Assembly: GCA_965140785.1 (NCBI GenBank)
Contig: OZ223497.1
Coordinates: 64,001-128,000, forward strand
DNA: 64,000 bases
Reading direction: 5' to 3'
Source of the DNA: an uncultured Ruficoccus sp.
GTDB lineage: Bacteria; Verrucomicrobiota; Verrucomicrobiia; Opitutales; Cerasicoccaceae
Shown here: positions 16,670 through 37,204 of the stretch, in pieces
Layout: each line of letters starts with the position of its first letter
Position numbering within the stretch: the stretch's first letter is position 1
Translations under genes and position numbers: made by a program
Notes under the pieces: generated by a model
Seen by the model: the letters and a program-made list of their open reading frames with translations, nothing else
Told to the model about the DNA's origin: nothing
The model's database searches: none

Positions 16670-17788
16670 TTGAAACAACAAGCTTACCTATTACTGAGCA
16701 TGATGGCTGGCTGGATGAACCGTCATCAGCAGCAAGTCATTGAGTATTTGGTCGAGGAGAACCGTATTCTCCGTGAGCAACTCGACATTCACGCCAAGGG
16801 CAAACGCATTCGCTTCAACGCGAACCAACGCAGGCGCTTGGCTGAGAAAGGCCGTTGTCTGGGGCGCAAGATGTTGATGAAGATAGCGACGCTCGTGACA
16901 CCAGAGACGATCTACCGCTGGCATCGCCAGTTCGTCGCAATGGCTTATGGTCCGAAGGGCCGGGATCATTCCGTTGTCCATGCTCGGCGGGCCGAGCGCA
17001 ATGCGCTCATCATCAAGCTGGCGGTTGAGAATTCAGGTTGGGGATACACGCGCATCCAAGGGGTGATGCAGAATCTCGGTTATCCGAAACTGAGTACCTC
17101 GACCATCGGGGAGGTGCTGCGCGAGGCAGGTATTCGCCCGTCGCCGGAGCGTAGCAGCCGTCTGGACTGGAAGACGTTTATACGTGTTCACGCCGATCAA
17201 CTGGCTGCCACTGACTTCTTCATGGTGCCGGTATGGACGTCGCGCGGCCTGGCCATGTATCGGGTGCATTTCGTGATCGACCTGCTGACACGTAAGGTGG
17301 AGATCACGCACATTGGTTGCCAATACTCCGGAGAGTTGATGCTCCAAATTGCCCGGAACCTGACGGATGCGTTCGAGGGATTCCTGACCGGCAAGAAATA
17401 CATGCTGCACGACCGCGACCCTCTCTTTACAAATGCGTTCCGTGAGTTGTTGCGTAGTAGTGGCACTATTCCTTTCAGGCTGCCTGTGTGCATGCCGATG
17501 ATGAACGGTTACGCCGAGTGCTTCGTTAAGTCGATCAAGCGTGAGTGCCTGGACAAGATAATTTTCTTCAGCGAGGCAGCCTTACGGAAAGCCATCAGCG
17601 AATACGTGCTGCATTATCACCACGAAAGACCGCATCAGGGCCGCGATAACCAAATCATCGAGCCGGACGTAGAAACCTTTCGCAATCAAGGCCCGATCCG
17701 AAAAATCGCACACCTCGGAGGGCTTCTGAATCACTACTATCGCGATCCATTACCGAAAATTGACGAAGGGGAGGGTAGGGCCGCATGA
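16670..17788 (+). mobile_element. Integrase-core (rve, DDE) transposase
   Basis: TPETIYRWHR, WGYTRIQG, AATDFF, LHDRD, NGYAECFVKSIKRECLD, YHHERPHQG, LGGLLNHYYR. Confidence 0.9.
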
Positions 17789-33966: not shown

Positions 33967-34839
33967 ATGTCCGGCCATTCACATGTACGTCAGTCTTCCT
34001 TGGGTTTCAGGGTCTGGCGCTGGCCCCTTGAACACAGACAGCAGAGGCATAAGCCGCACACTCACTCAGACATTGAAATTAATTGCCTCCTGCAAGGGCG
34101 TATCCGCTATGTGATGGGAGGGCATCTCTGTGATATCGAAGCGGGCGAGTTGGGGATATTCTGGGCGGGTATCCCGCATCAGATAGTTGAGTGGCACGAA
34201 CCTTTGGAGGGTATTTGGCTGACGCTGCCGTTGGATTGGCTGTTGCGCTGGCAAATCCCCGGCAACTTCGCGGAAAACCTGCTCGCGGGGCAGCTCGTTT
34301 GCCACCGTACGCACGGCAAGGAGGATGGTTTGCTCGAACAATTCCAAATCAAGCGCTGGCTGCGCGAGTTCAATGCGAAGCAGTCCGGAGCGCTTGAAAT
34401 ACTGCATCTGGAGGTTGAGGCTCTTATCCGGCGCCTAGCTCGCAGTTTTCAAGATGCTCCCCGCCAAAAGTCTGTGCCTGTAGATGACCGACGCTTACAG
34501 AAGTTTACTCACATCACCGACTTTTTGGCCGCCCATTATCTTGAAGATATTTCAATCGATGATGTCGCCCTTGCGGTACGGATGCATCCAAAATACATGA
34601 TGCAGTTTTTCAAAAAAACGGCAGGCATGACTGTTTTTAGCTATTTGCAGCGACTGAGACTAGCCCATGCCCAGCGTTTACTGCTCACGACGGACATCAA
34701 AGTCATTGACGCGGCCTATGAGGCGGGCTTTCAGTCCCTCAGTTCGTTTTACCATGCCTATAAACAATATTACCATGGAGCCAAGCCCACGCAATTACGT
34801 GGAAGAATGCCAGCCATTGCCGGAGGTAAGCTAACTTGA
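33967..34839 (+). CDS. AraC-family regulator, MelR-like
   Basis: HTHSDIEIN, FWAGIPHQ cupin domain; C-terminal double HTH; divergent from GH4. Confidence 0.88.
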   Translation: MSGHSHVRQSSLGFRVWRWPLEHRQQRHKPHTHSDIEINCLLQGRIRYVMGGHLCDIEAGELGIFWAGIPHQIVEWHEPLEGIWLTLPLDWLLRWQIPGNFAENLLAGQLVCHRTHGKEDGLLEQFQIKRWLREFNAKQSGALEILHLEVEALIRRLARSFQDAPRQKSVPVDDRRLQKFTHITDFLAAHYLEDISIDDVALAVRMHPKYMMQFFKKTAGMTVFSYLQRLRLAHAQRLLLTTDIKVIDAAYEAGFQSLSSFYHAYKQYYHGAKPTQLRGRMPAIAGGKLT

Positions 34840-34852
34840 GCGGGGTTTATAG

Positions 34853-35120
34853 CAAAACGGTTGAAAAAGTGAAACGTCCTAAGGTTGTTACCGACGAGCC
34901 CGGAATCTTGAGCGTAGACGACATGGTTCGCCTTTTCCGAATGAACCAAAAAATTGATCCGGAGATATGCGGCCTGCTGGCCCTCGGAGCCTTCGCGGGG
35001 ATGCGGACCTCAGCCATCGCCAAGATGGACTACGAGGAAATCGACTTCGCCCAGCGCGGTATTCTGATCCCGGCCAGCAAAACGAAAAAGCGCCGCCGCC
35101 AGTGGATTGAGGGGTTGCCG
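34853..35120 (+). pseudogene. Tyrosine integrase internal fragment
   Basis: PGILSVDDM..LALGAFAGMRTS (box I Arg)..IPASKTK; box II missing. Confidence 0.8.
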
Positions 35121-35186
35121 TGGAGTATGCGATTTCTGAGTTTCTTATTCCTTGGCAGCAACTTATGGTTTTTTGAAAAAGTTGTC

Positions 35187-35530
35187 TTGAAACCGCAAGT
35201 TTTACTTCTGCTAGCATGATGGCTGGCTGGGGGAAGCTGCGAAGCGCTGACCTATGAACCGTCATCAGCAGCAAGTCATTGAATACTTGGTCGAGGTACC
35301 GAACTGAGGCGCAGCCTCGGCGACAAAGCGAAGCGCCCATGCCTGAACAAGATGATTTTCTTCAGCGAGGCAGCCTTACGGAAAGTCATCAGCGAATACG
35401 TGCTGCATTACCATCATGAGCGACCGCATCAGGGCCGCGATAACCAAATCATCGAGCCGGACGTAGAAACCTTTCGCAATCAAGGCCCGATCCGAAAAAT
35501 CGCACACCTCGGTGGTCTCCTGAATCACTA
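35187..35530 (+). pseudogene. Internally deleted relative of the 16670 transposase, with two micro-insertions
   Basis: 5' part matches about 16670-16758 and 3' part matches about 17546-17737; roughly 790 bp missing. Confidence 0.9.
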
Positions 35531-36851
35531 TGGCTGAGTCCCACCTTTTGGCCCAGTAGCTATGATAGTTTTCCGGTCGGGTTATTGTGTTGGTTGGTTT
35601 GTTTTTTGAGGTTCTGGCGCAGAGAGGCCGTAGGCCGAACGGAGCCGGAACCTGTGTTTGGTTGTTTGGCAAACTGGGCGGGCGTGAGCAAGCCCAGAGA
35701 GCGGTGAGGTCTTTCGTGATTATGCAGATGCCTGTAGTCATCGAAGATGACGCGTGATTCACTGAGGGTGTAGATGAGTTCGCGATTGAGGCATGTCTTC
35801 GCTGCGCTCGAGTGTCGCCGTGCCTGAGGGCACAGGCTCGGTACGCGCCTAAACTTCTCGTTAAAACTCTCGACGAAACCGTTCTGCCAGGGGCATCCCG
35901 GGTCGATGTAGAGCGTTTTTATCTGGTTATCGGACAGCCAACGCTGGATACACTTAGCAATGAACTCAGGGCCGTTATCGGAGCGGATAAACTCCGGGGC
36001 CTCATGTTTGGCGATGGCCCCCTGGAGCAGCGTGAGTACGTCTTCGGCTTTGATCGCCCGGTCCGAATGGATGCAGTGGCACTCGCGTGTGTACTCGTCG
36101 ATGAGGTTGAACACGCGCAGCTTGCCGCCACGCTGGGTGTAATCGCTCACAAAGTCCCAGCTCCAGACATGGTTGCGACGGAGCGCCTCGGTCGGGAGCC
36201 CCGTGGACAAGCCCTGGCGACGCCTGCGAGGTTTGGGCGCGGGCACTTGCAGATGCTCCTCGCGACGCACCCGCTGCACGAGCTTCTTGCCCACGGCCCA
36301 GCCCTCATTACGCAGCTTTTGCGTGATCTTGCGGTATCCAAAAAACGGATACTTCCGGGACATCTTCACGATCTCGGATTCGAGCAAACGTTGTTTCTCG
36401 GGCAGGGGCTTGGGGCGATACCGGTAGGTCGAGCGAGCAATGCCCAGCCATCGGCAGACCTGTCTCCCGGAGCACCGGAGCGCAGACACCACCTTCGCGG
36501 CGGTGCTGCGCTGGCGATCCGGGCTCAGGCGTTTTTTTCCAACGCGATCTCCAGAGCTTTGATCTGGAGCAACTGGTCCGCGACTATCTTTTTGAGCTGA
36601 TCGGCTTCCTTTTCCAGCTCCTTGAGCCGTTGCGCCTCCTTCACGCTCAACCCGCCATACTGCTTCTTCCAGCGGTGGTACGTCGGCGCACTGATGCCAT
36701 ACTCGCGGCAAATATCATCCGCGCGCATGCCTTCGCTCGCGCGAAGGATGCGGATGATCTCTTCGGTCTCCCTTTTTTCATATGATTTTACGGTCATTCC
36801 TGACCGAAAAATCTATCAACAGCAATGGGCCAGTTTCAGGGGGCCCTGCCA
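35531..36851 (-). mobile_element. IS3-family insertion sequence
   Basis: Imperfect IRs tggctgagtcccaccttttggccca / tggcagggccccctgaaactggccca. orfA 36797-36525 (HTH); A7 slippery run at 36532-36538; orfB to 35560 with WSWDF, SDNGPEF, QNGFVESFN. No target duplication visible. Confidence 0.93.
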
Positions 36852-37204
36852 GCTTCGTCTTCGGCGTGAAAGCCGTCTCTACCGGAGCGAGACTATTCTA
36901 GCTCGAAGTCGATTGCCGGTTTTGAACAGTACCTTGACGTTCATTTGAGTTCTGATCAGAGGATAATAATATTTGTGGAAAATCAGCTGTTTTATTGAAA
37001 AATATTTTCGATTTACATCTGCGTTTTCAGCGCGGTGTGTGTTAAAATCGATTCAATCGAATACTTTCTGCCAATAGCTTTCGTTCGTTGTTACTCCATA
37101 GATTATGCTGTTTCGCCAATGATCCGTTCGTGCATTTATAACACGGATTTCAATCAACACTAACCCTATGGTTCATAGATATTTAACTTACGATACCGCT
37201 TGTT

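Follow-up and report, generated by a model that had tools for sequence, protein, structure and literature searches.

Repetitive extragenic palindromes (REPs) start with a 5' GT[AG]G followed by an imperfect palindrome, are extragenic, reach hundreds of copies and often flank the gene of a REP-associated tyrosine transposase (RAYT). Insertion sequences (ISs) of the IS200/IS605 type insert 3' of a fixed 4-5-nt word, and their excision restores the flanks exactly. The Rickettsia palindromic elements (RPEs), about 100-150 bp in length, lie in ordinary host genes, and classical miniature inverted-repeat transposable elements (MITEs) have inverted-repeat ends and target duplications. Herein, we describe a family of structured micro-elements, 27-49 nt in length, in a 64,000-nucleotide stretch of DNA (the window) from an uncultured Ruficoccus sp. 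of the Opitutales. The window corresponds to C26:64001-128000 (contig OZ223497.1, assembly GCA_965140785.1) in a genome of 4.36 Mb, 50 contigs and 59% G+C. Two copies of the element, A and B, interrupt transposase genes in the window.

Like REPs, the micro-elements are tens of bases long, begin with a short conserved word followed by a hairpin, are non-autonomous and presumably move as single-stranded DNA; a RAYT-like gene is also present in the genome, in two copies. However, they start with TACCGA, TTCCGA or TTCACGA instead of GT[AG]G, have a second mini-hairpin, and reside in about 30 copies inside transposase genes without flanking the RAYT-like gene. With IS200/IS605 and its miniature derivatives (PATEs), they share the lack of terminal inverted repeats and target duplication, the subterminal hairpins and the strand-specific insertion. 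They differ in that only N^AR (^, insertion point; R, purine) is common to the targets, that one target base is lost and that they are 3-10 times smaller. RPEs and in-gene MITEs are likewise small palindromic selfish DNA in coding genes and sometimes form a translated loop, as copy A does. In contrast to a classical MITE mobilised by a DDE transposase, the micro-elements have neither terminal inverted repeats nor target-site duplications.

Phage T4 gene 60 and the mitochondrial 'byps' of Magnusiomyces are characterised by mobile coding-sequence inserts of 27-55 nt, a hairpin at the start of the gap and sometimes a stop codon, which resembles the present elements. A matched Pro pair, CCG...CCA, exists in the variants with a ...CC tail (sites a, d, b and h') and is absent from those ending in GAC, AAC or CTC. 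Unlike the bypass elements, many variants here have no matched codons, one element is antisense and some lie in non-coding DNA; bypassing of the present elements is hypothetical. As an idea, SOS splicing in animals is also comparable, in that a transposon hairpin marks a segment for removal from mRNA (PMC12779559). That system is an RTCB-dependent one of animals, whereas RtcB was found in one of four element-bearing genomes here. A literature search on bypassing, on RtcB or introns with transposases and on mini-hairpins, partial in its coverage, retrieved no description of such elements.

Results

Two micro-elements interrupt transposase genes

Copy A lies inside orfB of an IS3-family element (Table 1) and has the layout TACCGA-GCC-T-GTGCC-CTCA-GGCAC-GGC-GACA-CTCGA-GCGCAGC-GAAGAC. 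It replaces the AG of the GAG (Glu) codon at the R-E-C-L motif. The element is in frame and open, and encodes VPSLCPQARRHSSAAKT, such that orfB reads ...FRR-VPSLCPQARRHSSAAKT-CLNRE. An earlier note on this DNA had asked whether the resulting 17-aa loop is a normal feature of the closest IS3 homologues. We aligned 15 of the closest orfB homologues (62-86% identity), out of at least 120 listed, including an IS3 transposase named Cerasicoccus maritimus by the source, and all 15 read FRRECLNRE without the loop. An empty allele, CGC-GAG-TGC, was also recovered, as the contigs of four of four runs join 35793 to 35844 (50 positions skipped, 'CT' between). The contigs of the compared runs show loose ends at 36852, the edge of the host IS3.

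Runs X1 and X2 contain contigs about 90% like the window IS3, without element A. In these contigs, 52 other letters replace 5 at window positions 35975-35981 (codons AP-E-FIRSD), and this change may represent another element at another Glu codon. No paralogue with the 52-letter change was found in the assembly.

Copy B lies at a deletion junction in the remnant of an rve-type transposase gene. The description in the earlier note held for both copies, including the G that precedes and the ATGCCT that follows each of them, and the intact rve transposase paralogue in the window indeed has no insert (empty site b, Table 1).

The insertion follows one rule

Empty alleles for sites a and b were provided by the window paralogue and by C4:131355, and those for sites k, h' and f and a second set for site c by an IS3 of three Opitutales metagenome-assembled genomes. 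At eight of eight sites with filled and empty alleles, N-A-R was converted to N[element]A. With one purine lost per insertion, the target grows by one nucleotide less than the length of the element. Neither a target duplication nor terminal inverted repeats are seen; the ends read TACCGA... and ...GCCC or GAAGAC. AG is replaced at sites a, b, c and h' and at site c of the metagenome-assembled IS3, where the target triplet is GAG. AA is replaced at sites k (GAA), f (CAA) and m (AAA). The same rule applies outside transposase genes, as evidenced by comparing the T-loop of a tRNA-Gln gene (GGTTCG-AG-TCCC) and the partial copy near it (GGTTCG[element]A-TCCC). Site e obeys the rule if the active IS is read as W-K-Y (TGG-AAR), and the antisense site would obey it if its Phe codon was TTT, as in the window IS3.

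The predominance of Glu codons among the targets reflects the composition of these genes, in whose open reading frames (ORFs) 58 of 93 GAR triplets (62%) and 18 of 23 GART triplets (78%) are Glu codons. We had considered the Glu-codon phase as a sign of a translational role and rejected it, given that the GAR and GART base rates largely explain the bias. The 5' flanks are alike only in their last base, and the targets have only N^A-purine in common. Inspection by eye for guide-like complementarity between elements and target flanks revealed nothing convincing. The specific targeting of the E-C-L motif or the catalytic-Glu helix, proposed earlier, is not sustained, since at least nine sites in this genome, and further ones elsewhere, share only N^A-purine. 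We regard the family and its insertion rule as established by these sequence comparisons.

Anatomy of the micro-elements

The anatomy was derived from 41 distinct sequences, three of which are chance-like. The general layout consists of TACCGA, hairpin 1, GACA, a spacer (AA, CTCRA, CTA or TA), the mini-hairpin GCGNAGC, and a tail of 1-6 nt (GCCC, GAAGAC, GCTC or GCC). The 5' word varies among TACCGA, TTCCGA and TTCACGA, and the preceding base is G, C or A. In the commonest class, hairpin 1 lies between GGA and GAC. No enzyme is encoded inside the element.

The pairing of hairpin 1 was examined in 28 distinct sequences. Pair 10-24 covaries (GC 16, AU 8, CG 3, UA 1, unpaired 0), and the other inner pair is CG in 20, UA in 2, GC in 1 and unpaired in 5. 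Overall, 96.4% of the cells are paired vs. 84.5% in shuffles, with none of 500 shuffles as high, and shifting the partner by one column drops the paired cells to 3.6-4.4%. Since the 28 sequences are related, these statistics are support rather than proof of the pairing. According to a review, GCGNAGC and GCGNNAGC are 'mini-hairpin DNA' motifs, far less stable as RNA than as DNA (PMC13037366). A cmscan of six element-bearing loci against Rfam 15 (E<=1) returned only tRNAs and chance matches away from the elements.

Copies and sites in this genome

The pattern TACCGA-N8-22-GGCGACA has two matches in the window vs. 0.03 expected, and two were reached in none of 100 shuffles. The earlier note had called for a search for further copies. 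A wide pattern yielded 30 copies in this genome (17 loci and the window), and more were found in other Opitutales-type records. The flanks of all 30 are transposase-like (rve-transposase motifs), as judged by eye and not by Pfam. A stricter pattern gave 23 matches vs. 0 for the reversed control, one of which (C46:1829) looks like chance. In relatives, the stricter pattern matched once in each of 2 of 40 genomes, one of the same genus and one of another genus of the family.

At least nine different insertion sites are occupied in this genome (Table 1), and one identical 42-nt variant resides at two unrelated sites, YLVE^ENRIL and DEFTRE^C. The orientation is sense at every transposase site except one. 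We considered an assembly artefact, which is ruled out by the recurrence of the family in other assemblies and collections. A long autonomous parent was also rejected, as 22 of 22 genome matches to the 3' half of the element lie within 50 nt of a TACCGA.

Copy B is the product of recombination between two elements

The 5' flank of copy B is that of site a (YLVE^E) and its 3' flank that of site b (E^CLNKMIFF), and the part of the transposase gene that separates them, about 850 bp, is absent. Full-length filled copies of the rve transposase hold elements a and b, approximately 850 nt apart. Copy B agrees with the 42-nt type of YLVE^ENRIL in its 5' part and with the 37-nt type of KRE^CL in its GGCGACA and 3' flank. 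With its 5' half from element a and its 3' part from element b, copy B thus arose when two elements of one gene recombined and the interior was deleted. The earlier caveat that copy B sits at a deletion junction, with a left flank that is not native, proved to be well founded. A second copy of the same deletion product is present at C26:178767. Relatives of the active IS3 of this genome likewise join orfA to orfB at one single element. The transposase with sites a and b matches both the IS3 and the IS481 models, below both cut-offs.

Other small inserts occur in the same genes. A 23-nt insert precedes the remnant with copy B (Table 1) and is also present at L010, L004 and L005; the intact paralogue and one filled copy do not have it. 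It contains the mini-hairpin without TACCGA and is, by its sequence, a second kind of micro-insert. At the catalytic-Glu motif, N-G^Y-(A/V)-E, another hairpin insert of 24-25 nt (GGCGGGC...GCCCGCC type) interrupts the rve transposases of L009 and L010 (C26:133.4k and 164.7k) and IS3 copies of C25 and C49. Its presence does not depend on that of the TACCGA elements, and its empty site is at window positions 17498-17515.

Effect on the host insertion sequences

The micro-element breaks or lengthens the transposase frame. The active IS3 of the genome is 1.32 kb in length, has 12 copies of 98.3-100% identity with uninterrupted orfA and orfB, and contains no element. Its copies are found on contigs C4, C10, C13, C39, C48 and C50, and several adjoin decayed element-bearing relatives. 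The 88-91% relatives of this IS bear elements and are internally deleted at them. Extra stops or frameshifts occur in 6 of 10 k-bearing copies vs. none of 5 k-free copies. The antisense element sits in an IS3 with three near-identical copies. A clean removal of an element leaves N-A, which equals a 1-nt deletion and a -1 frameshift.

We also compared the coding sequence around the elements. The ratio of nonsynonymous to synonymous divergence (dN/dS) between two filled copies of the window rve transposase is 0.079 at a dS of 0.43. Five copies with four shared elements ('++++') show a dN/dS of 0.17-0.42 3' of the first stop, at a dS of approximately 0.3, and four of the five have no extra stop. 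In the metagenome-assembled IS3, presence and absence at four sites form nine combinations among 20 copies.

Occurrence in other genomes

A scan of species genomes returned at least 116 stretches. Among the matches listed, every one with the whole architecture belongs to a record labelled Opitutales, Opitutaceae, Puniceicoccaceae or Pelagicoccus; those in other phyla have no tail and hairpin and are chance-like. Pelagicoccus mobilis KCTC 13126 has two copies. The contexts are IS3 genes, partial tRNA copies adjoining intact tRNA-Ser or tRNA-Gln genes, and hairpin loops just 3' of genes. A metagenome scan returned 14 stretches, two of them chance-like; four lie in an IS110-like transposase gene, one at DNGP-E^F of an IS3, four in tRNA fragments and three in other non-coding DNA. 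The earlier claim that transposase genes are the target thus describes this genome, where 30 of 30 copies lie in such flanks, but not the other Opitutales records, in which partial tRNA copies and hairpin loops are also occupied.

In metagenome contigs L227, L229, L232 and L235, the element is inside the IS110-like (DEDD) gene, between ...VVRPRNWD and YGQKVKTDNRDA. Judged by eye from its motifs and not by Pfam, this gene would be a third, unrelated transposase host type. An intact tRNA-Ser of a Puniceicoccaceae metagenome-assembled genome (L049) adjoins a tandem pair of 110-nt units. In each unit, a micro-element is combined with the 3'-terminal 19 nt of the tRNA and a spacer of 56 nt that contains CTTCGCGAAG and an 11-bp T-arm palindrome. 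We tested whether the elements are tRNA introns and rejected this, as the hosts are partial tRNA copies beside intact genes, and ARAGORN predicted no additional tRNA after the element was removed.

RAYT-like genes of this genome

The only HUH genes in the genome are two copies of a 308-aa RAYT-like gene, which matches REP_Tyr_transpos at 67.4 bits, below the cut-off of 80. The gene lies between inverted repeats of about 30 nt, GGGGTCAG...CTGACCCC, in two 1006-bp units of 99% identity, L001 (C10:479.9-481.4k) and L002 (C43:224.7-225.7k). We found no similarity between these units and the micro-elements, and the RAYT-like gene is not flanked by micro-elements. Across genomes, the presence of the gene does not follow that of the element. 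A clear example of an IS200-type TnpA came only from G042, another element-bearing genome.

Table 1. Micro-elements, host genes and insertion sites in the window and in this genome (^, insertion point)
Feature	Position	Strand	Remarks
Copy A	35795..35843	-	49-nt micro-element
Copy B	35297..35338	+	42-nt hybrid micro-element
IS3-family element, host of copy A	35531..36851	-	1321 bp; ends TGGCAGGG...CCCAGCCA
orfA of host IS3	36525-36797	-	
orfB of host IS3	end = 35560	-	
Remnant of IS481/IS3-like rve transposase gene, internally deleted, host of copy B	35254..35530	+	cut off at 35530 by the IS3
23-nt insert GGGAAGCT-GCGAAGC-GCTGACCT	35231..35253	+	directly 5' of the remnant's ATG
Intact rve transposase paralogue	16670..17788	+	empty sites a (16750-16764, GTCGAG-GAG-AACCG), i (17498-17515) and b (17537-17551, AAGCGT-GAG-TGCCTG)
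Open frame	34836-35219	+	truncated by the IS remnants; by eye looks like the C-terminal part of a tyrosine recombinase
Site a			YLVE^ENRIL
Site b			KRE^CL, same transposase as site a
Site c			R/D-E^CLN, in at least 5 diverged IS3 lineages
Site d			DEFTRE^C
Site e			DWRW^KYNN
Site f			PW^QNP
Site m			LEKE^N, in orfA
Antisense site			WD-F^VSD
orfA site			KR-E^LG, inferred from deletion products

Discussion

We give about an even chance to the explanation that the family is a selfish, non-autonomous micro-element that acts at the DNA level, probably moves as single-stranded DNA and parasitises ISs. The element inserts in one orientation between the N and the A of an N-A-purine triplet, and would probably be recognised as single-stranded DNA by an enzyme supplied in trans. 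A single-stranded route is suggested because the special stability of GCGNAGC is a property of DNA and because hairpins lie just inside both ends, as in the HUH-type substrates (IS200/IS605 and REP). The accumulation in transposase genes may have three reasons: the GAR triplets there are mostly Glu codons of conserved motifs, ISs tolerate damage, and ISs copy and export whatever rides in them. True transposition is indicated by the 42-nt variant at two unrelated sites, and also by the elements in the IS110-like gene, the partial tRNA copies and the hairpin loops. The idea of a tiny non-autonomous mobile element, put forward in the earlier note, agrees with what we found: the sequence is repeated, encodes no enzyme, has filled and empty alleles, and turns up at unrelated sites as well as in other genomes.

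Several observations weigh against this explanation. We know of no transposition chemistry that fits the loss of one target base. In G042, an Opitutales genome, it is the interrupted IS, an IS3, that burst to approximately 40 near-identical copies, with 43 filled vs. 5 empty alleles at site k and 42 vs. 8 at site m; in G041, site k is filled in 29 copies vs. 5 empty. The burst IS of G042 is 1345 bp in length, and nine close copies compared have two variable positions, one of them common to several; a tenth copy, L180, diverges over its 5' part. Both elements of this IS, m and k, are in frame with one TGA each (contexts TGA-C and TGA-A). Among the 19 loci examined, there is no full-length copy without an element, with 40 of approximately 130 candidate IS copies scored per genome (G041-G043), so a master copy may have been missed. 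The exons between elements stay open, with a dN/dS of 0.08-0.45. IS copies with a synonymous divergence of 0.26-0.63 differ at 2 of 154 nt in their elements, and a given site retains a variant of its own even in diverged IS copies. Such site-bound variants look more like spread by recombination between IS copies than free transposition, and the element and exon data fit recent spread between IS copies as well as long coexistence under strong constraint. The search for a mobilising enzyme identified none. The earlier note had suggested looking for co-occurring HUH/RAYT genes, and this association was rejected: Y1-type matches, found in 24 of 41 relatives, do not track the presence of the element (41 + 3 genomes). 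Finally, no unusual folding stability was observed, with nearest-neighbour z-scores of -1.35 to +1.86 (RNA or DNA). These scores are uninformative because nearest-neighbour parameters miss the stability of mini-hairpins, as stated in the mini-hairpin review (PMC13037366).

The main rival is that the elements are mobile recoding cassettes which the ribosome passes, so that transposase is still made at a low level, and we judge it to be rather unlikely. The ribosome would read through in-frame copies that have a single TGA and would hop over frame-shifting copies, as in T4 gene 60 or the 'byps', with take-off at the element's own CCG (N-TA-CCG-A) and landing at the CCA formed by the ...CC tail and the flanking A. 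It is in line with this proposal that both elements of the G042 burst IS are in frame with exactly one TGA, that the '++++' copies are constrained past the first stop and mostly have no extra stop, that none of the loci examined is an element-free full-length copy, and that the orientation is sense at all transposase sites but one. A hop from CCG to CCA would also put the 42-nt type back in frame at its two sites, as well as h' and the DNGP-E-F copies in L020 and L231; the hairpin begins one base past CCG-A, where the commonest type has a Shine-Dalgarno-like GAGGAG. However, the hop fails for elements with GAC^A, AAC^A or CTC^A ends (landing ACA or TCA), including the metagenome-assembled IS3 site c. 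The product would exchange an invariant Glu (E119, E162 and E219 in alignment A1) for Val-Pro or longer loops, the GAR target largely explains the phase bias, one element is antisense, and recoding is meaningless for members in non-coding hairpin loops and tRNA fragments. Improbable to a greater degree is an intron-like removal, in which a structure-specific endoribonuclease would cut the element from the transcript and an RNA ligase would rejoin the exons, resembling IRE1/XBP1 splicing, archaeal bulge-helix-bulge introns or animal SOS splicing. It would accommodate genes that proliferate and are otherwise intact with as many as four or five interruptions, a conserved structure that rests on pairing rather than sequence, and the mostly sense orientation, and as a concept it has a precedent in the hairpin-triggered, RTCB-dependent excision of transposons from animal mRNAs (PMC12779559). 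Against it, RtcB, present in one of the four element-bearing genomes, was not found by search of G042 or of this genome (90.85% complete). Removal at the insertion boundaries creates a -1 frameshift, and an in-frame product must keep one element base, with a changed residue. The mini-hairpin is stable as DNA and weak as RNA, there is no Rfam match, one copy is antisense, and the tRNA genes with elements are partial, not functional.

We consider it very improbable that the elements are a host weapon, a host-encoded system that writes stoppers into conserved transposase motifs and silences ISs. The transposase-like flanks of 30 of 30 copies in this genome, the three unrelated host types (IS3, the rve type near IS481 and the IS110-like gene) and the contrast between the element-free active 12-copy IS and its decaying element-bearing relatives would be expected of such a system. 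Element-bearing ISs have nevertheless burst to approximately 40 copies, elements in other genomes also occupy DNA other than transposase genes, no candidate system was found, and the target is merely N^AR. The proposition that nothing here is mobile, and that we are looking at an ordinary variable protein loop, a chance resemblance or an assembly error, can draw on copy A and the 37-nt type being in frame and open, yet we give it virtually no credence. The loop is absent from all 15 close homologues, the observed count was not reached in any of 100 shuffles, and the same nucleotide element recurs in independent assemblies, at sites unrelated to one another and also in non-coding DNA, a recurrence that also answers the question of an artefact raised in the earlier note. 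Mechanisms other than those considered here have a small chance.

A bolder proposal, which we put forward tentatively and consider doubtful, is that the elements are the first bacterial chromosomal counterpart of the mitochondrial 'byps', that is, self-contained, mobile recoding cassettes or micro-introns with which an IS goes on producing its transposase at a throttled level. Each cassette would supply its own codons for take-off and landing plus a hairpin, or else a leaky TGA. This would provide an explanation for the burst of interrupted ISs with perfect exons to approximately 40 copies, and for elements that are conserved much more tightly than the surrounding coding sequence.

If the micro-elements are no more than selfish DNA, they rank with the smallest known structured mobile elements, and an insertion that loses one target purine without duplication represents unexplained chemistry. 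They would form a parasite nesting of three levels, with a micro-element in an insertion sequence in a genome, and shape the decay of ISs via two-element deletions. If the transposases are still made, recoding or splicing in bacteria would have a new, mobile form, and ISs a new means of throttling themselves. Either way, they break ORF calling and IS annotation in Opitutales genomes.

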